Assembly: GCA_963765675.1 (NCBI GenBank)
Contig: CAVXXK010000014.1
Location: 128,001-192,000, forward strand
DNA from: an uncultured delta proteobacterium
GTDB taxonomy: Bacteria > Desulfobacterota > Binatia > Binatales > Binataceae
DNA length: 64,000 nucleotides
Reading direction: 5' to 3'
The position numbers and the translations under genes were made by a program. The number at the start of each line of letters is the position of its first letter. Position 1 is the first letter of the stretch. The notes under the pieces are model-generated. The model saw only the letters and a list, made by a program, of their open reading frames with translations, was not told the origin of the DNA and searched no databases. Of the stretch, positions 30,092-38,200 are shown in pieces.

Positions 30092-31558
30092 TTACGGAAT
30101 CAGGCGGCGATACCACGGGGTTGACGGCGGCATGTAGCCCGGAGGATAGCCGTAGCCCGGCGCGGGATAGCCGTAGCCAGGTGCGCCGTAACCCGGAGGA
30201 TAGCCGCCCGGATACACAGGTGCGCCGTAGGGACTTCGATACGCGTACGGCGATCCGTAGCCGTAAGGGCTCGCGCCGGGAACGACCATGACGGGCGGCC
30301 CGCTCGCGGTGCTCATCCCTTCGCTGTTCGCGTCGACCGATGCTTCGACAAAATTGCTGCCCAGGCCGTATGCGCGAATCGAGGCTTGCTGCCCCGGTGC
30401 CATCTGGAAGACGACGTCAAACGAATTGTAGGCGCCGGCGCCGATCGGAATCGACTTCATCAGGTGGCCGTTCTCGTAGACGCCTGCGCGATGCACTCCC
30501 GCGCCGGAGATCTGTCCGATTACTTCGTAGCTGCCCGGCTGCGCCGGCGACGGCATCACGCCGAGCACGTTTATCTGCACGTTGGTCAGGGGTCCCTCGA
30601 CGCCTCCGGGCAGCCTGCGTCCGGGCGCGCCGGTTGCGTCTTCGGAGCCGTCGGCACGCGGAATCTCTTCGGTATTGTTGCGAGGACCAGGAATTGCGGC
30701 CGGATCGGCCGAGGCAACCGCCTCGGAATCGAGTTCTCCACCGCCGAGCTCGATCATCTTTTCACGGCCGTCATGCGAATGCGTCAGCGCGGCCGCATCC
30801 GGCGCGAGCTGCGCTCGAGCAACGCGTCCGAGCGCGTCGGTCACCTCGAGCGTCTGCGAAGGCGACGGATCCTGCAATCCGAAATCGAAATTCACGCGCT
30901 GCTCGCCGCTCACGTCGCTGACCGCAATCGTCTTGATAGCGGTCGAGCCGTCGAAGATTCCCGCCGAGCGGAGATCGGTGCCTTCAAAGAATCCACGCAC
31001 CCGCACGCCGCCGCCCGTAAACGATCTCGAGCTGATCACGACTTGCGGAGCTTTCGGAGCTTCCGGGGGCAGGCTCGCCGATGGAGTCAAAGGACTGGAC
31101 GCCGGCGGAGCGCTGGTTGCGACCGGTCCCGCGACCGGCGTCACCTGCGCTTCGAGCGCCGCGATTTGTCCCTTGATTGAATTCCATTGCGGCAGATCCG
31201 GCGCTCCCTTGACCGCGCGCGCCGCGTCGATTTGATTACGGTCTTTCACGATCGCCGCCATCGCATGGCCCGCCGCCGCGCGGTCGCCCTTGTCGAGCGC
31301 GCCGCTCAGCGATTGCGCGTCGCTGGCGAGGCTCGCGACTGGCGGCAGCATAGCGCCCGCCTTCGCGTCGGCGTCGATCGAGTTGAGCATCGCAAAAGCG
31401 GCGTCGCTAAGTCCGGACGCTACCGCCTGCGGGGAATCAGCGCGCGTAGCGACGGGAGCAAACACCGCGAGCGCGAATGCCAGAATCGCCGCGGACGCTC
31501 GGACGGCCCGAGTCCGAATCGTATCGCGCAGACAAAGAAAGTTCCGTACGGTTCGCAT
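30092..31558 (-). CDS. secreted hypothetical protein with a Tyr/Gly/Pro-rich C-terminal tail
   Basis: Signal peptide (…ATRA-D), two similar beta-rich domains and YGYPAPG-type repeats. Confidence 0.7.
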   Translation of the reverse strand: MRTVRNFLCLRDTIRTRAVRASAAILAFALAVFAPVATRADSPQAVASGLSDAAFAMLNSIDADAKAGAMLPPVASLASDAQSLSGALDKGDRAAAGHAMAAIVKDRNQIDAARAVKGAPDLPQWNSIKGQIAALEAQVTPVAGPVATSAPPASSPLTPSASLPPEAPKAPQVVISSRSFTGGGVRVRGFFEGTDLRSAGIFDGSTAIKTIAVSDVSGEQRVNFDFGLQDPSPSQTLEVTDALGRVARAQLAPDAAALTHSHDGREKMIELGGGELDSEAVASADPAAIPGPRNNTEEIPRADGSEDATGAPGRRLPGGVEGPLTNVQINVLGVMPSPAQPGSYEVIGQISGAGVHRAGVYENGHLMKSIPIGAGAYNSFDVVFQMAPGQQASIRAYGLGSNFVEASVDANSEGMSTASGPPVMVVPGASPYGYGSPYAYRSPYGAPVYPGGYPPGYGAPGYGYPAPGYGYPPGYMPPSTPWYRRLIP

Positions 31559-31875: not shown

Positions 31876-32883
31876 GTGGGACATCCTGACATCAATGCTG
31901 CGGGTTCGTCGCAGGCGCTCTCCGCCTCGGGCGACTACCGTGCGCTGCGCGACGGTGCGGGTGCGATCGCGCTTGGCGAGCGCATCGTCGTCCGCGTGAC
32001 CGGCGACGACCGCGTTTCGTTTCTCCACGGGATGAGCAGCAACGATATCAAGCAGGCGAGCGCGGGCACGGTGATGCCGGCGCTGTTCCTGACCGAGCAT
32101 GCACATCTGATCGCGGACTTTTTCGCGTGGATCGAACCCGACGCGATTCTTATCGAGATCGATTCCGCGCTATGGACCCGCGCGCGGGCGCATCTGGAAA
32201 AGCTGCTGGTCGCCGACGACGTCGAGTTCGAGGAGCTGACCGAGCTTGCTGTGATCGATATCGAAGGTCCGCGCGCCGCCGAGGCGGTTCGCGCCGTTGC
32301 GGGCGAGAAAGCCGCGGCGCTCGGCGAATGGAGTTTCGTCCGCGCCGACGACGTGACGGTCGGCAATTTGCCGCGACTCGGATCGAGTGCGTTTACGATT
32401 CTGGCGCCGGCTGAAAAGACCGTGTCGATCCTGGCACAGATAACCGCGCTCGGCCCCGATTTTCGCGCAGTCGGCGCCGATGCGCTCGAAATCGTCCGAG
32501 TCGAGAACGGACTGGCGCTGACCGGCGTCGATACTGTCGAGAAGACTATCGCGCTCGAAGCGCGGCTTGACCGTGCAATCTCGCTGCGCAAGGGATGCTA
32601 CGTCGGCCAGGAGACGATCGAGCGCGCCACCGCCCGCGGCGGACTCCGCAAGCGCCTGTTCGGACTGCGAATCGAGGGCGCGCGCGCGCCGCAGCCAGGA
32701 TCACCCGTGATGCTCGCCGGAAAGGAAGTAGGGCGCGTGACCAGCGTGGTGCATTCGCCGAAGCTCGGCGTGATCGCTCTCGCGATCCTGAATCAGAGCG
32801 CGTGGGCGCAAGCCTCGGCGCTTTCGATCGCCGATCCGGCCGGCGAAATCATAGCGCGGACGAGCGAGATTCCGTTCCGTTGA
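31876..32883 (+). CDS. ygfZ: folate-binding Fe-S repair protein (YgfZ/GcvT family)
   Basis: KGCYVGQE signature and GDDRVSFLHG. Confidence 0.92.
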   Translation: MGHPDINAAGSSQALSASGDYRALRDGAGAIALGERIVVRVTGDDRVSFLHGMSSNDIKQASAGTVMPALFLTEHAHLIADFFAWIEPDAILIEIDSALWTRARAHLEKLLVADDVEFEELTELAVIDIEGPRAAEAVRAVAGEKAAALGEWSFVRADDVTVGNLPRLGSSAFTILAPAEKTVSILAQITALGPDFRAVGADALEIVRVENGLALTGVDTVEKTIALEARLDRAISLRKGCYVGQETIERATARGGLRKRLFGLRIEGARAPQPGSPVMLAGKEVGRVTSVVHSPKLGVIALAILNQSAWAQASALSIADPAGEIIARTSEIPFR

Positions 32884-32932: not shown

Positions 32933-33076
32933 ATGGCAAACACCCTGGGTAAACGTTACCAGTGCGAAAAGTGCGGCACCGAGGTCCTGTGCAACAAGGC
33001 CGGCACCGGCGAGCTCGAATGCTGCGACCTGCAGATGAAGATCAAAGAGGCCAAGCCGCTTCCTTCGTCTGACTAG
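32933..33076 (+). CDS. desulforedoxin-like microprotein (47 aa) with a C-terminal PLPSSD tail
   Basis: AAAGGAG RBS; MANTLGKRYQCEKCGTEVLCNKAGTGELECCDLQMKIKEAKPLPSSD; CxxC-x15-CC; absent from the ORF track. Confidence 0.88.
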   Translation: MANTLGKRYQCEKCGTEVLCNKAGTGELECCDLQMKIKEAKPLPSSD

Positions 33077-33104
33077 CCAGCGCCGCGCGCCGCATCGGAT
33101 CGCA

Positions 33105-34664
33105 GTGGCTGCCACCTCCGCCAAGGCCGATCTCGTCCTCCATCAGGGCGTGATTTTCGGGCATCGCGATAGCGACTCGGTCGCGGTCAGCGGAGGCCGG
33201 ATCGTAAGCCACGGCCCTTATTCGGAACTCAAGGCGCTGGTCGGGCCGAGGACGCATCTGATCAAGCTCGCGGGGCGCACACTCGCGCCCGGTTTTGTGG
33301 ATGCGCATCTCCATTTTCTTGAAGCTGCTTCCGCCGTCAGCGGGCTCGCGGTATGGCGATGCCGCAACCTTGCGGATCTGCTGGCAGACCTGCGCGTCGG
33401 CGCGGGACGGACTCCGCCGGGCAACTGGCTGCGCGCGTTCGGATGCGACGAGGCGCTGCTCGCGGGCAAACGCGGCCCGACGCGCGACGAGCTTGATCAG
33501 GCGGTCGCGAAGAATCCGCTGAGGCTGCGGCATCAGACGCTCCATGCTTCATGGCTCAACACTCGTGCGATAAATCAGCTAGGACTCGAAGCCAAAGATT
33601 TTCGTCCGCCCCCCGGCGCCACGATGTTCCGTGACGGAACCGGCAGGCTGACAGGCCTTGTGGTCGGGATGGAAGAGTGGCTGACGCATCATCTGCCGCT
33701 CGTGACCAAGGCTGAGCTCGAGGCGCGCGCGCGCACGATGAGCCGCGAGCTATGCGCTGCCGGAGTAACTGCGTTCACCGACGCAACCGTGCGCAACGGC
33801 CCCGAAGAGGTCGAGCTGTTCGCGAGGCTCGCCGCCTCGGGCGCGATCTGCCAGCGCGTCGCGATGATGGTCGGCGCGCGGCATCTGGAAGCCGCCACCA
33901 AAAGCGCGGAGGTTGCGCACGCCGCCGGAATCCGGCTGGCGGGACTCAAGTTCATGCCCGGCAGCGCCTATGACGGCTCGACCGCGGCGCGCCGCGTGCG
34001 CATCGCTCTCAGCAGCGGACTTGACTGCGCGTTTCATGCGACCGAAGTCGAGGAGCTGGACGAAGCGCTCGAGGCGATCGAGCTCGCGCAGCGCCAGATC
34101 GGCGCAGCCAAGACGCCTGCGGTATGCCGAATCGAGCACGGCGGCGTCATCTCGCCGGATCACATCGCGCGAATCGTGGCTGCGCGCGCGTGGATCGTCA
34201 CCAATCCCGGTTTCATTTATTTTCGCGGACCCAAGTACTCAGCCGAGGCGGGACTTGCGCCGCATCTGTATCGTGCCGCCTCGCTGCGCGCGGCCGGAAT
34301 CGAGCTGGCCGGCGCTTCCGACGCTCCGGTGACGCCCGCGCGTCCACTCGTCGGTGTGGCCGCCGCAATCTCCCGCGCGACGATCGACGGCAATGTCCTC
34401 GGCGCCGAAGAGCGGCTTGCTCCCGCCGAGGCGTTCGCGCTCTTCACGCGCGACGGCGCCCGCCTCCAGCGCCTGGAGGCCGGCGAGATTGCGCCGGGGA
34501 TGCTCGCCGATATGGTGGTGCTCCAGCGCGACCCGATGACGCTCGGTCCCGCCGAGTTGCTCGCGCTCAACGTCGATATGACCCTTATCGCGGGCCGCGT
34601 CGTGTACGAACGCGGCCGTCCCGCGGTCGCCCACAGCGACAGCGCGGATCTTCATTCAGCCTGA
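33105..34664 (+). CDS. amidohydrolase_3 (YtcJ-like) family protein
   Basis: PGFVDAHLH, AFHA, RIEHG and ASDAP. Confidence 0.9.
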   Translation: MAATSAKADLVLHQGVIFGHRDSDSVAVSGGRIVSHGPYSELKALVGPRTHLIKLAGRTLAPGFVDAHLHFLEAASAVSGLAVWRCRNLADLLADLRVGAGRTPPGNWLRAFGCDEALLAGKRGPTRDELDQAVAKNPLRLRHQTLHASWLNTRAINQLGLEAKDFRPPPGATMFRDGTGRLTGLVVGMEEWLTHHLPLVTKAELEARARTMSRELCAAGVTAFTDATVRNGPEEVELFARLAASGAICQRVAMMVGARHLEAATKSAEVAHAAGIRLAGLKFMPGSAYDGSTAARRVRIALSSGLDCAFHATEVEELDEALEAIELAQRQIGAAKTPAVCRIEHGGVISPDHIARIVAARAWIVTNPGFIYFRGPKYSAEAGLAPHLYRAASLRAAGIELAGASDAPVTPARPLVGVAAAISRATIDGNVLGAEERLAPAEAFALFTRDGARLQRLEAGEIAPGMLADMVVLQRDPMTLGPAELLALNVDMTLIAGRVVYERGRPAVAHSDSADLHSA

Positions 34665-34666
34665 TC

Positions 34667-35458
34667 ATGGCGCTTTCGGAAAAAGATAACAGCGCGGTCC
34701 TTTATGAGAAGCGCGGCACCGTCGCGTGGGTGACGCTCAATCGCCCGGCGCAGTTGAACGCGTACAACGTGGCGATGCGCGATGCCCTGTTCCAGACTCT
34801 GAGCGCGATTCACGACGACCCCGAGGTCCGCGCGATGGTGCTCTGCGGCGCGGGCAATGCGTTTTCGACCGGCGGCGATCTGCACGAGTTCGGCACCGCG
34901 CCGTCGCCCGTCGCCGCGCGATGGATCCGTTTCCGGCGCGACGTGTGGGGACGCCTGAAATCGCTGCCGGTTCCGACGCTCGCGGCCGTGCACGGCTTCA
35001 CCGTCGGCGGCGGACTTGAGATGGCGATGCTGTGCGACCTCGCAATCGCGGCCGACGACACCCGCATCTGTCTGCCTGAAACCGGGGTCGGGATGATTCC
35101 CGGCGTGGCGGGCACCCAGACTGCCTCGCGGCGCCTGCGCCTCGGCCGCGCGCTCGATTTGAACCTCACCGGCCGCTGGATTGACGCGCAAGACGCATTG
35201 CTTATAGGTTTGGTCGCCGAAGTCGTTGCGCCGCCGCGGCTCGAGCGGCGCGCACTCGAAATCGCGCGCGGACTTGCTCGCATGCCCCGGGAACACTCTG
35301 CTATCGCCAAGCTCGCGATCTGGGGCGGACTCGACCTGCCGCTTAGCGAGGGGCTCGATCTCGAGCGCAGGCTCGCGCGGCGGATGGCAATAATGACGCA
35401 GCGCGGCAATACAAAGCGGCACAATTCAGGAGGTAACGCGGTCCGTGAACACCGTTAA
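34667..35458 (+). CDS. enoyl-CoA hydratase/isomerase family protein
   Basis: VTLNRP..LNA, FSTGGDL, GGGLEM and LPETGVGMIPG; ATG 34667 is the likely start. Confidence 0.9.
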   Translation: MALSEKDNSAVLYEKRGTVAWVTLNRPAQLNAYNVAMRDALFQTLSAIHDDPEVRAMVLCGAGNAFSTGGDLHEFGTAPSPVAARWIRFRRDVWGRLKSLPVPTLAAVHGFTVGGGLEMAMLCDLAIAADDTRICLPETGVGMIPGVAGTQTASRRLRLGRALDLNLTGRWIDAQDALLIGLVAEVVAPPRLERRALEIARGLARMPREHSAIAKLAIWGGLDLPLSEGLDLERRLARRMAIMTQRGNTKRHNSGGNAVREHR

Positions 35459-36989
35459 TTTCGTGACGATTCCGTCGTCGATCGTTCCCGATCAGGAGAT
35501 TGTTGATTTCGGGGATCGGCGGCTGAATTACGCGCAGTTTGCCGATACCGTTGCGCGCCTATCCACGATCTTCAAGCAGCAGGGACTCGCTCCGCGCGAT
35601 GTCGTTGCCGCGCTCGACACCAATTCCGATCTTTATATCGCCGCCTACTACGCCGCCGCCAAAGCCGGGCTCACCTTCCTGCCGCTCAACTACCGCGCCA
35701 AGGAAGCCGAGCTCGAATACATGATCAACACCGCGGCGACCAAGGTTCTGCTCGCCGGCGATCGCTATCTTGACCTGATCAAGCGCCTGCGCCCGCGCCT
35801 CAAGCTCGCGAACGTCCTTGCGATCGGCGACGGAGAGCCGGGAATCCCGCGCCTTTCCGATCTGATCGCCAAGGCCGAGCCCGACGAAGCCGAGGCCGAA
35901 GTCGAGGACGAGGACACTTCGATCCTGATGTACACCAGCGGCACCACGTCGCTGCCGAAGGGCGTGATGCTCTCGTTTCGCGATTTCACCGCGTACGTGA
36001 CGGCAAACATCGAAATGGCGGACGGCACCGACCGCGGCGTCGCACTGGTGTGCGTGCCGTTTTACCATATCGCCGGAACCACCGCGTACATGACCAACAT
36101 CTGGACCGGCAGAAGGCTGGTCGTGATGCCGCAATTTGACGCCAAAGCGTGGCTGGCTCTGGTCGCGAAGGAGCGGGTCACGCACGCGTTCGTAGTGCCC
36201 ACGATGATGAAGCAGGTCCTCGACGAGCCGTCATTCAAATCGACCGATCTTTCGAGCCTGACCAATCTCGCCTATGGCGGCGCGCCGATGCCGATCCAGG
36301 TGATCCGCCGCGCGATCGAGGCGTTCCCCGCCACGGTCGGCTTCGTCAACGCGTACGGACAGACCGAAACCACATCGTCGCTCATCATCCTCGGCCCCGA
36401 CGACCATCGGATTACCGGCACACCGCAGGAGAAGGAACAGAAGCTCCGGCGTCTCAACTCGATCGGCAAGCCGCTCCCCGACGTCGAGATCCGCGTGCGC
36501 GACGAAGACGGCGCGCTGCTTCCGCATGGCAAGGTGGGCGAGATCGTCATCCGCACCCCGCGCATCATGAAGGGCTATGCTGGACGCACCGACGACGCCG
36601 CGCTGGCCGAAGGATGGCGCGCGACCGGTGACCTCGGCTGGATCGACGAAGACGGTTACGTGTTTTTCGCCGGCCGCAAGGACGACATGATTATCCGCGG
36701 CGGCGAGAATATCGCGCCGGCCGAAATCGAAACCGTGCTGATGAGCCATCCTGCGGTCGATGAATGCGCGGTGATCGGAGTTCCCTCGGTCGAGTGGGGC
36801 CAGACCGTCAAGGCGTTCGTGGTTTGTCGCGCGGGAGAAAAGATCACGCGCGACGATTTGAGCGAGTTCTGCCGCTCGCGCCTGGCGAGTTTCAAACGCC
36901 CCGAGCAGATCGAATTTATCGACGCGCTGCCCAAAAATCCCCTGGGCAAGATCCTGCGCAAAGATCTGCGCGCGCCGTCGGGAGACTGA
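35445..36989 (+). CDS. acyl-CoA synthetase / AMP-binding enzyme
   Basis: YTSGTTSLPKG, YGQTE, TGDLG, GRKDDMIIRGGENI and LPKNPLGK. Confidence 0.95.
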   Translation: MNTVNFVTIPSSIVPDQEIVDFGDRRLNYAQFADTVARLSTIFKQQGLAPRDVVAALDTNSDLYIAAYYAAAKAGLTFLPLNYRAKEAELEYMINTAATKVLLAGDRYLDLIKRLRPRLKLANVLAIGDGEPGIPRLSDLIAKAEPDEAEAEVEDEDTSILMYTSGTTSLPKGVMLSFRDFTAYVTANIEMADGTDRGVALVCVPFYHIAGTTAYMTNIWTGRRLVVMPQFDAKAWLALVAKERVTHAFVVPTMMKQVLDEPSFKSTDLSSLTNLAYGGAPMPIQVIRRAIEAFPATVGFVNAYGQTETTSSLIILGPDDHRITGTPQEKEQKLRRLNSIGKPLPDVEIRVRDEDGALLPHGKVGEIVIRTPRIMKGYAGRTDDAALAEGWRATGDLGWIDEDGYVFFAGRKDDMIIRGGENIAPAEIETVLMSHPAVDECAVIGVPSVEWGQTVKAFVVCRAGEKITRDDLSEFCRSRLASFKRPEQIEFIDALPKNPLGKILRKDLRAPSGD

Positions 36990-37124
36990 CCAACGGCGTC
37001 CCGCGCGAAAACCCACAGGCCGGCTCCCGCGCGCGAGCCGATCGAGATCGCGCTCACCGGCGGATGCGTCACCGCGCGGATTATTGACGCGCGCCGTCCG
37101 CTCGGCTCGGCGGGCGCCAACCGG

Positions 37125-37757
37125 ATGCTCGAGCTGTTCGAGCAGGTCGAAGACGACGAATCGATCCTGATGCTCGCGATCACGGGGACCGGCGCGTCGT
37201 TCTGCGAAGGATTTGGCGACGACGTAGATCCGCGAATCGTCGAGTCGTTCGCCGCGATTTCCAAACCGACCGTCGCGATTATCAACGGCAACGCGATCGA
37301 CGAGGGGCTCGAGCTCGCGCTCGCGGCCGATATCCGAGTGATTGTCCGCCGCGCCCGGATCGCGCTGACTCAACTAGCGCGCGGCGAGCTTCCGCATTTC
37401 GGAGGAACCCAGCGCCTGGCGCGAATCGCCGGACCCGCGCAGGCGCTCAGGATGCTCCTGACCGGCGCCGCGCTCGACGGCGCCGCGGCCGAGCGCGTCG
37501 GTATCGCGACTTATCTGGCTAAAGACGAACGCGATCTCGCGCGGGCTGCAGGAGCCCTTGCCGAGGCGATTCTCTCTCGCGCCCCGCTCGCGGCGCGGCT
37601 GGTCAAAGACGCTGTCCTCAAGGGATACGATATGACTTTGGAGCAGGGTGTCAGGCTTGAGGAAGATCTGTACGCCCTGCTACAAACGACTGCCGACCGT
37701 GGCGAAGGCGTGCGCGCGTTCCTGGACAAGCGCAAGCCGATTTTCCGCGGCGCTTGA
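37125..37757 (+). CDS. degenerate enoyl-CoA hydratase family protein; true start probably near 36986-36990
   Basis: KPTVAIING, GGTQRL and EGVRAFLDKRKPIFRG; GGG replaced by DEG and the LPE glutamate replaced by LTQ. Confidence 0.85.
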   Translation: MLELFEQVEDDESILMLAITGTGASFCEGFGDDVDPRIVESFAAISKPTVAIINGNAIDEGLELALAADIRVIVRRARIALTQLARGELPHFGGTQRLARIAGPAQALRMLLTGAALDGAAAERVGIATYLAKDERDLARAAGALAEAILSRAPLAARLVKDAVLKGYDMTLEQGVRLEEDLYALLQTTADRGEGVRAFLDKRKPIFRGA

Positions 37758-37784
37758 AGAATCGATTGCGAAAGGAATGGTGAG

Positions 37785-37904
37785 ATGGCCAATCAACTGG
37801 GCAAAGTTTATATCTGCGCCAAATGCGGCTCGCAGGTGATCGTGACCAAGGGCGGCACCGGCCTGCTCAAATGCTGCGGCGTTCCGATGGAACAGAAAAA
37901 GTAA
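37785..37904 (+). CDS. desulforedoxin-like microprotein (39 aa)
   Basis: AAAGGA RBS; MANQLGKVYICAKCGSQVIVTKGGTGLLKCCGVPMEQKK; CxxC-x15-CC; absent from the ORF track. Confidence 0.88.
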   Translation: MANQLGKVYICAKCGSQVIVTKGGTGLLKCCGVPMEQKK

Positions 37905-37957: not shown

Positions 37958-38200
37958 ATGATCGGAGCCATAATTGTCGGAATCATCGCCGGATGGCTGG
38001 CGGGCAAGCTGATACGCGGCAAGGGCTATGGAATTATCGGCGACCTGATTCTCGGGTTGGTCGGCGGCCTTATCGGCGGATGGATTATCGGCGCATTCAA
38101 CATCCCCGGCCCTAACGGAGTGATCGGCGCGATTGTCGTCGCGACGATCGGCGCGGTCATCCTCGTGTGGATCGCGCATCTGATTCGCGGCGAAGTCTGA
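37958..38200 (+). CDS. GlsB/YeaQ/YmgE family membrane protein
   Basis: IIVGIIAGWLAG...G.GIIGDLILGLVG...ATIGAVIL; AGGAGG RBS. Confidence 0.9.
   Translation: MIGAIIVGIIAGWLAGKLIRGKGYGIIGDLILGLVGGLIGGWIIGAFNIPGPNGVIGAIVVATIGAVILVWIAHLIRGEV

Follow-up and report, generated by a model that had tools for sequence, protein, structure and literature searches.

Two desulforedoxin-fold microproteins co-inherited with an acyl-CoA ligase clade and crotonases suggest a so far undescribed accessory or carrier protein in acyl-CoA metabolism

The 64,000-nucleotide stretch analysed here (the window) is part of contig CAVXXK010000014.1 from an uncultured soil bacterium of the Candidatus Binataceae (class Binatia) and carries an operon of acyl-CoA-processing enzymes which is bracketed by the genes for two small proteins of the desulforedoxin family, here called DxA and DxB (collectively Dx). 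Among the genomes and metagenome contigs compared, this pair is co-inherited with one clade of ANL acyl-CoA ligases and with crotonases (ECH). On the sequence evidence, the best-conserved feature of the pair is the C-terminal tail of DxA, which ends in Asp, and not the metal site, the cysteines of which are dispensable in orthologues. This suggests that the pair has an accessory or carrier function in acyl-CoA chemistry which is so far undescribed. A previous sequence-only reading of the window had ranked it as its top candidate for a new system, and no publication on the pair, the tail or the acyl-CoA association was found in our literature search, which did not cover subscription journals.

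The genes are all on the + strand in the order ygfZ, DxA, Amidohydro_3, ECH1, ANL ligase, ECH2, DxB. The features of the region (aa, amino acids) are:

31876..32883, + strand: ygfZ, CAF17-like folate-binding Fe-S assembly/insertion protein; GCV_T/GCV_T_C; TIGR03317 at 77.6 bits (cut-off 49)
32933..33076, + strand: DxA, desulforedoxin-fold microprotein of 47 aa; PF06397 at 25.2 bits; tail K41-P-L-P-S-S-D47
33105..34664, + strand: Amidohydro_3, metal-dependent hydrolase of 519 aa; PF07969 at 234 bits; an optional member
34676..35458, + strand: ECH1, crotonase retaining the two catalytic Glu (GGGLE ... LPE); ECH_1 at 162.9 bits
35445..36989, + strand: ANL acyl-CoA ligase of 514 aa with a GTG start; AMP-binding at 271.6 and AMP-binding_C at 83.2 bits
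36990..37757, + strand: ECH2, crotonase fold with the second catalytic Glu replaced (LTQ); ECH_1 at 117 bits over profile positions 86-249
37785..37904, + strand: DxB, basic, tailless desulforedoxin-fold microprotein of 39 aa; PF06397 at 33.1 bits
37906..37923, no strand assigned: GC-rich hairpin directly after DxB, with a terminator-like score on the - strand only

A profile search of the whole genome (4,516,620 bases in 16 contigs) returned DxA and DxB as the sole two matches to PF06397, so that their placement at both ends of one operon is not due to chance.

Two open reading frames (ORFs) of fewer than 50 aa with strong ribosome-binding sites had been called at these positions by the sequence-only reading. 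Their coordinates and sequences are confirmed: DxA (MANTLGKRYQCEKCG...CC...KPLPSSD) and DxB (MANQLGKVYICAKCG...CC...QKK) both have the cysteine spacing CxxC-x15-CC, and the Shine-Dalgarno-like sequences AAAGGAG and AAAGGA/GGTGAG precede the two ORFs. The enzymes named as lying between them (amidohydrolase_3, active crotonase, ligase, degenerate crotonase), with ygfZ directly upstream, are borne out by Pfam and TIGR03317 matches. Both microproteins exceed the gathering score of PF06397 (Desulfoferrod_N, 23 bits), in line with their earlier description as paralogous members of the desulforedoxin family, and both miss the cut-off of TIGR00319 (36.05 bits) with scores of 19.3 (DxA) and 27.7 bits (DxB). 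A superoxide reductase (SOR) domain, already reported as absent, was not detected in DxB and DxA (39 and 47 aa), TIGR00320 scoring 25 bits where 146.9 are required. Neither these two proteins nor their Acidimicrobiia-type homologues (a label given by one source to a tandem-type Dx protein) have a Pfam match to the MbtH family. The AlphaFold2 (AF2) model of DxA corresponds to desulforedoxin (1DXG) with TMt 0.80 and a root-mean-square deviation (rmsd) of 1.3 A, and the model of one domain of a natural DxB-DxA fusion (see below) does so with TMt 0.94 and rmsd 0.4 A.

By comparison of their orthologues, both ORFs are translated genes under purifying selection. Orthologues are present in 19 of the 19 Binatia genomes from which loci were fetched, genomes which had been selected for having PF06397 matches (DxA 62-100%, DxB 64-95% identical). 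The invariant residues of the microproteins are encoded by 2-5 synonymous codons, and the ratio of nonsynonymous to synonymous substitution rates (dN/dS), computed for sets chosen by motif pattern, is 0.18 for DxA (139 distinct coding sequences) and 0.12 for DxB (94 distinct). At E<=0.001, 1312 representative clusters belong to the family, and a collection of 185,579 species genomes contains 582 confirmed stretches. The names found for its members are 'hypothetical protein' or a desulforedoxin/desulfoferrodoxin-type label, with one evident misannotation as ribosomal protein S27E, and the matches in the protein atlas are solely hypothetical-protein clusters with PF06397.

That DxA and DxB act as a pair is supported by tandem, often overlapping genes and by many natural fusions. 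A Cys3His variant of DxA served as the query for metagenome contigs, and on these a DxB-type gene is found directly upstream of the DxA-type gene and frequently overlaps it; according to tblastn, this applies to 44 of the 71 metagenome loci with at least 200 nt of upstream sequence. The top matches of the profile search by which fusions were found (1.84 billion representatives, the 1312 matches being at E<=0.001) are single chains of 81-122 aa with the arrangement DxB-linker-DxA, DxB thus being the N-terminal domain. Where the source is named, these are 'hypothetical proteins' from metagenome-assembled genomes labelled as Betaproteobacteria and Firmicutes/Bacillota. The predicted fold of one natural fusion has a pLDDT of 83 and a pTM of 0.71, with disorder confined to the linker. 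Desulforedoxin is a homodimer, and because split, tandem and fused forms of the microproteins all exist, we argue for a DxB:DxA heterodimer.

Other apparent fusions were rejected. Fused open frames of ygfZ and DxA (446-447 aa) are overlapping open frames in GC-rich DNA and thus not fusions, and the chains DxA-amidohydrolase (P0236, P0245) and Dx-Dx-ligase (P0395) contain frameshifted stretches and are read as assembly or gene-calling artefacts rather than Rosetta stones.

The association with the enzymes was counted in Binataceae loci (the best 80 of the 582 confirmed stretches) and in metagenome loci. A ligase, an ECH and a second Dx are encoded 3-7.5 kb downstream of DxA in 62 of the 64 Binataceae loci with at least 5.5 kb of downstream sequence, and ygfZ is upstream of DxA in all 77 with at least 1.2 kb of upstream sequence. 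In the metagenome loci, ygfZ is found in 8 of the 48 with at least 1.2 kb upstream, these being Binatia-like (DxA 85-98% identical), and a ligase or ECH is present, in other gene orders, in 26 of the 34 with at least 2.5 kb downstream. Acidimicrobiia-type contigs have an ECH on the (-) strand followed by DxB', DxA', an ECH on the (+) strand and the ligase. The order is DxB, DxA, ligase, ECH2, ECH1, Amidohydro_3 in locus L189; Dx, DxA, ligase, ligase in L173/L174; and DxA, ligase in L133. In genome G048, a nearly Cys-free fusion is followed by the ligase and then an ECH; in G055, an ECH on the (-) strand is followed by a fusion and a ligase, within which the contig stops. Five genomes of family f11 (G066, G115, G170, G185, G230) have ygfZ, a Cys-free fusion in the DxA slot, ECH1, ligase and ECH2, and these clusters contain neither an amidohydrolase nor a trailing DxB. 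The sequence-only reading had proposed to look for conserved co-occurrence with the ligase, both crotonases and the amidohydrolase. For the ligase and the crotonases it is found, in Binatia as well as in other lineages and in four gene orders. The amidohydrolase is optional, being absent from three of the 19 Binatia genomes (G041, G057, G060), from the five f11 loci and from the Acidimicrobiia-type layouts.

The ligase tree was obtained by a quick maximum-likelihood search with 47 ligases. Every sampled Dx-linked ligase falls into one clade of 26 rows (Shimodaira-Hasegawa-like approximate likelihood ratio test, SH-aLRT, 97), which consists of 11 ligases from Binatia, 8 of Acidimicrobiia type, those of L189, L133, L174 and G048, and 3 Binatia orthologues without a flanking Dx. 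Outside the clade are 19 Binatia paralogues and 2 accessory ligases; the lone 'paralogue' within it (G048) is the gene next to a fusion. A phyletic survey covered 61 genomes, namely that of the window (G000) and 60 of its relatives, two of which (G010, G027) are unpublished; relatives are non-independent samples. A Binatia-type ligase orthologue (at least 57% identity) occurs in 51 of the 61, and a Dx pair or fusion in all of these 51. None of the seven genomes without a Dx match (G038, G039, G040, G046, G047, G054, G056) has a Binatia-type ligase orthologue. The assembly of G033, which is 76% complete, contains a Dx gene at the end of a contig but no ligase. A flanking Dx is missing at the clusters of G044 and G058 and at the orphan ligase of G049. 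These genomes initially appeared to have lost both Dx genes because the PF06397 model misses Cys-free fusions; this was overturned when a fusion profile recovered a Cys-free fusion elsewhere in all three.

With respect to conservation within the pair, residues K41, P44, S45, S46 and D47 of DxA are invariant in alignment A1, where the fourth metal ligand is Cys or His; the site of Acidimicrobiia-type DxA is Cys3His. The ending [STAG][SAG]D is found in 120 of the best 150 representatives, and in at least 16 of these 120 the CxxC knuckle is missing from the tail-bearing domain. Across 33 aligned fusions, near-invariance is seen in the G-K-R-Y motif, at L62 and G67 and in the Asp at the C-terminus. 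The in-cluster fusions of f11 have kept KEAKPLPSSD and have lost essentially all cysteines, and the four Cys are also not retained in the orthologous fusions of families f7 and f9. Residues 41-47 are modelled with low confidence in isolated DxA (AF2, mean pLDDT 58). The tail, the most conserved feature, had not been mentioned in the sequence-only reading.

In three f9 genomes, the Cys-free fusion adjoins a gene for a Fur-family regulator (L239 in G044, L272 in G135, L283 in G197), and in two of the three a ZnuB-like ABC-3 permease and an ATPase are also beside it. In two f7 genomes (L237/G058, L282/G076), it is located beside a FecCD/Peripla_BP_2 importer. Zinc-limitation regulons hold Cys-less paralogues of zinc-ribbon proteins. 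By analogy, these neighbours, which are from related genomes of two families only, would argue for Zn in the Cys-bearing forms; we take this Zur-regulon-type reading as a lead only.

The ligase is a complete ANL enzyme, in which TSGTTSLPKG, YGQTE and a C-terminal GK, which we take to be the ANL core motifs, are legible. It scores below every NCBIfam cut-off. The solved structures closest to it are those of a fatty-acyl-CoA synthase, a feruloyl-CoA synthetase and FadD13. Twelve residues are specific for the clade: Y184, I209, R223, W236, F249, V250, N302, A303, S311, G317, D413 and R418. The best solved relative of ECH1 is 5ZAI, a 3-hydroxypropionyl-CoA dehydratase, and both catalytic Glu (presumably Glu144 and Glu164 in the numbering of the rat enzyme) are kept in all aligned rows, 21 of Binatia type, including L189, and 7 from the (+) strand of Acidimicrobiia-type loci. 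ECH2 is fast-evolving; its second Glu is replaced by Gln in the window and by residues other than Glu in all 23 aligned rows, its first Glu is lost in some rows, and the alignment to 5ZAI has a shortened oxyanion loop after the FCEG segment. In the (-) strand ECH of Acidimicrobiia-type loci, neither Glu is present. The nearest solved chains for the amidohydrolase, 3ICJ and 3IGH, are uncharacterised hydrolases. According to the Pfam assignments, the conserved core of the operon contains no oxidoreductase.

We consider the chances about even that the DxB:DxA heterodimer is a dedicated non-redox partner, a docking subunit by which the DxA tail is presented to the ligase/crotonase module. The desulforedoxin fold would then be a small scaffold, metal-stapled where the four Cys are present, as in the window, and the functional element would be the flexible, invariant C-terminal tail of DxA (...K-P-L-P-S-S-D-COOH). 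Its partners would be the one clade of ANL ligases and the neighbouring ECH1, a putatively competent hydratase, and ECH2, which is missing the second Glu. As for physical binding, the enzyme contacted and the catalytic effect, we infer that the heterodimer docks via the tail onto the ligase or a ligase/crotonase assembly and may then activate or organise it, as MbtH-like proteins do for adenylation domains.

A number of observations weigh against a docking subunit. The invariant terminal Asp would suit a docking peptide and a covalent carrier equally well. Of the 34 metagenome loci with 2.5 kb or more of downstream sequence, eight have neither ligase nor ECH on the contig, their neighbours being a PF07826 IMP-cyclohydrolase-like, a DUF6125 or an APH-like gene. 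The Cys-free fusion is located apart from the enzymes in 12 of 17 Binatia loci, and in G020 the cluster is split by ~65 kb on one contig into ygfZ-DxA-amidohydrolase and ECH1-ligase-ECH2-DxB. In the ligase, ECH1 and ECH2, no position is invariant in Dx-flanked clusters and altered in G044/G058; the invariant residues are kept in both genomes, and there is thus no interface signal. The amidohydrolase is more changed, but nothing can be inferred from this because it is intact in G058 and frameshifted in G044 alone. As the loci were found via the Dx genes, the association has been assessed solely from their side. The ligase clade has SH-aLRT support only, from a quick search, and the choice of the dN/dS sets by motif pattern leads to a somewhat underestimated dN.

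The invariant Asp leads to the foremost alternative, which we nevertheless regard as unlikely: DxA would be a covalent carrier resembling LysW, with the ANL ligase activating or loading a carboxylate of its C-terminal Asp; the crotonases would work on a protein-tethered intermediate carrying a CoA thioester, and the amidohydrolase would free the product. With a small ribbon domain followed by a flexible tail and an invariant terminal Asp, DxA is built like LysW, an ATP-dependent ligase adjoins DxA, and an amide hydrolase does so too in many clusters. The Acidimicrobiia-type homologues match Zn_ribbon_LysW, although weakly and below threshold (13.4 and 14.5 bits, 27 required). Arg223, Arg418 and Tyr184, which are specific for the ligase clade, might bind a carboxylate. 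In LysW itself, the substrate is carried on the C-terminal Glu and the pathway ends with the hydrolase LysK (PMC12998189). Against such a role for DxA, the LysW Pfam score is far under the cut-off, the cluster contains no ATP-grasp loader, and the layouts of Acidimicrobiia type and those of f11, G041, G057 and G060 do without the amidohydrolase. Crotonases require a CoA thioester, which leaves no obvious use for a carrier, and we know of no ANL enzyme that activates a protein C-terminus. A new type of carrier, slightly less probable again, would have the ligase activate a carboxylate of the terminal Asp of DxA or attach a substrate to this residue, the two crotonases perform enolate chemistry on the tethered CoA-ester, DxB hold the carrier, and a hydrolase (Amidohydro_3 where present) release the product.

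Compared to these carriers, it is considerably less probable that the pair serves as a buffer or donor of Zn or Fe, with YgfZ-dependent Fe-S maintenance or the metal-dependent amidohydrolase as possible recipients, its place in the operon being secondary. Such metal handling would fit the adjacency of ygfZ in Binatia (77 of 77), the DxA of G020, which stays beside ygfZ and the amidohydrolase, and the proximity of Cys-free fusions to the Fur-family regulator (three f9 genomes), the ZnuB-like ABC-3 permease (two of them) and the FecCD-type importer (two f7 genomes). However, ygfZ is unlinked outside Binatia-like loci, a Cys-free protein, which could not carry metal in this way, fills the same slot of the cluster, and conservation concerns the tail and not the site.

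An electron carrier with an Fe(Cys)4 site of the desulforedoxin type, serving the pathway, had been among the functions proposed by the sequence-only reading. Both proteins of the window have all four Cys at the desulforedoxin spacing and match PF06397 and 1DXG. This is nevertheless a little less probable still: since the conserved core is devoid of an oxidoreductase and orthologues in the same slot are Cys-free, electron transfer cannot be the conserved role. The fused in-cluster orthologues lack essentially every Cys, CxxC is missing in at least 16 of 120 tail-bearing representatives, the Acidimicrobiia-type DxA has a Cys3His site, and there is no SOR domain; the proposal thus does not hold as a conserved function. 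That the pair, as basic zinc ribbons, binds nucleic acid or a regulator and controls acyl-CoA gene expression is just as improbable, for although zinc ribbons often bind nucleic acids, DxB contains six Lys and one Glu, and gene position varies in some genomes, there is no match to a DNA-binding family, and the operon placement, the tandem translational coupling and the co-inheritance with one enzyme clade are more subunit-like.

The degenerate crotonase of the sequence-only reading stands as such, its second Glu being Gln, and needs a correction at its start: ECH2 has no ATG, GTG or TTG before 37125, yet there is conserved coding from ~37035. It is in the same frame as the ligase, immediately past the ligase TGA stop, and this start-less in-frame layout recurs in L054, L056 and L188/L058. 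In total, ligase and ECH2 are in frame in 16 of 88 loci and out of frame in 72 of 88. The junction is ATGA, with the start overlapping the stop, in G009 and CTGA in most Binataceae. A public contig matches positions 36944-37127 of the window with zero differences. Candidates for initiation are ATC at a conserved Ile near 37041 and reinitiation at CTG; read-through of the TGA, resulting in a ligase-ECH2 fusion, is a further candidate.

As to the surroundings of the operon, Rfam and a promoter/terminator scan of the region 31-39 kb gave nothing above expectation. Directly downstream of DxB (37958-38200), a membrane protein of 80 aa (Transglycosylase_associated, PF04226) is encoded; this gene is retained in some Binataceae loci (L049-L052) and is outside the conserved core. 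Divergent and upstream of ygfZ (30092-31558, - strand) is the gene for a protein of 488 aa, the N-terminus of which is signal-like and the C-terminus rich in Tyr, Gly and Pro (YGYGSPYAYRSPYG...); at 32-95% identity, it is conserved in several loci of Binataceae. Other Binatia families have a gene for a MenB-like crotonase divergently upstream of ygfZ (L035, L038, L041, ~1250-1900, - strand), its GGGHVLH being presumably the MenB-like motif. In the split cluster of G020 (L047, L048), one microprotein is retained by each half.

On contigs devoid of ligase and ECH (L191, L199, L204; L197, L198, L202, L206, L207, L209, L211), the tandem pair follows the gene for a protein of ~240 aa, which is either PF07826 (with GTP cyclohydrolase I on the opposite strand) or DUF6125 with a Lys/Ala/Pro-rich N-terminus. 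If ygfZ of the Binatia loci and a formyltransferase close to L189 are counted too, several neighbours are folate/pterin-related, which may be a coincidence. In the Acidimicrobiia-type loci L146, L162, L151 and L174, a family III CoA-transferase and/or an APH-type kinase is repeatedly encoded just upstream, and thiolase, acyl-CoA dehydrogenase and SDR genes are close to these loci, a setting of lipid/acyl-CoA metabolism.

Proteins of less than 50 aa are routinely missed or left 'hypothetical', and the family described here is tied to a specific acyl-CoA ligase clade and to a pair of a catalytic and a non-catalytic crotonase. If the microproteins are an obligatory subunit, heterologous expression or assay of these ligases without the pair would mislead. 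If DxA is a carrier, this would be a new mode of CoA-ester chemistry, a LysW-style pathway built from acyl-CoA enzymes in Binatia, Acidimicrobiia-labelled and other lineages. The reuse of the desulforedoxin fold as a metal-optional scaffold bears on the annotation of PF06397 as a redox protein in aerobes.

Among known systems, the DUF35 Zn-ribbon/OB proteins, scaffolds in thiolase-HMG-CoA synthase and steroid aldolase complexes, are small rubredoxin-like ribbon proteins with a structural role as subunits of CoA-ester enzymes, to which the Dx pair would be comparable. DUF35 proteins differ from the Dx pair in fold and size and have no tail motif, and no sequence relation turned up in the searches made. 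With desulforedoxin (Desulfovibrio gigas Dx, 1DXG), the microproteins have in common the Pfam family PF06397, the CxxC-x15-CC spacing and the modelled fold, and its two-fold assembly of two ~36-aa units is mirrored by the DxB/DxA heteropair and by the fusions. Unlike desulforedoxin, the system has two specialised paralogues instead of one protein, DxA has a tail of 11 residues, the end of which is invariant, the cysteines of orthologues are dispensable, and the context is acyl-CoA metabolism of aerobic type, not SOR or sulfate-reducer genes.

LysW and related amino-group carriers (PMC12998189) likewise have a length of ~50 aa and consist of a ribbon domain and a flexible tail with an invariant acidic end; they too are encoded within the operon of their pathway, with a hydrolase in the cluster. 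In contrast, DxA ends in Asp and not in Glu, works as part of a two-protein unit and has an ANL ligase and crotonases as partners. Neither microprotein of the window matches PF21344 at E<=0.01, and homologues reach at most 14.5 bits compared to 27. Genes for ATP-grasp enzymes (LysX/ArgX), the LysZ/Y/J kinase, reductase and aminotransferase are absent from the Pfam assignments of the cluster and related loci. MbtH-like proteins are also small and non-catalytic, are found beside adenylate-forming ANL enzymes and are sometimes encoded elsewhere in the genome. They belong to an unrelated fold and family; the partner of the Dx pair is a stand-alone acyl-CoA ligase accompanied by crotonases, and the pair is distinguished by its conserved C-terminal tail.

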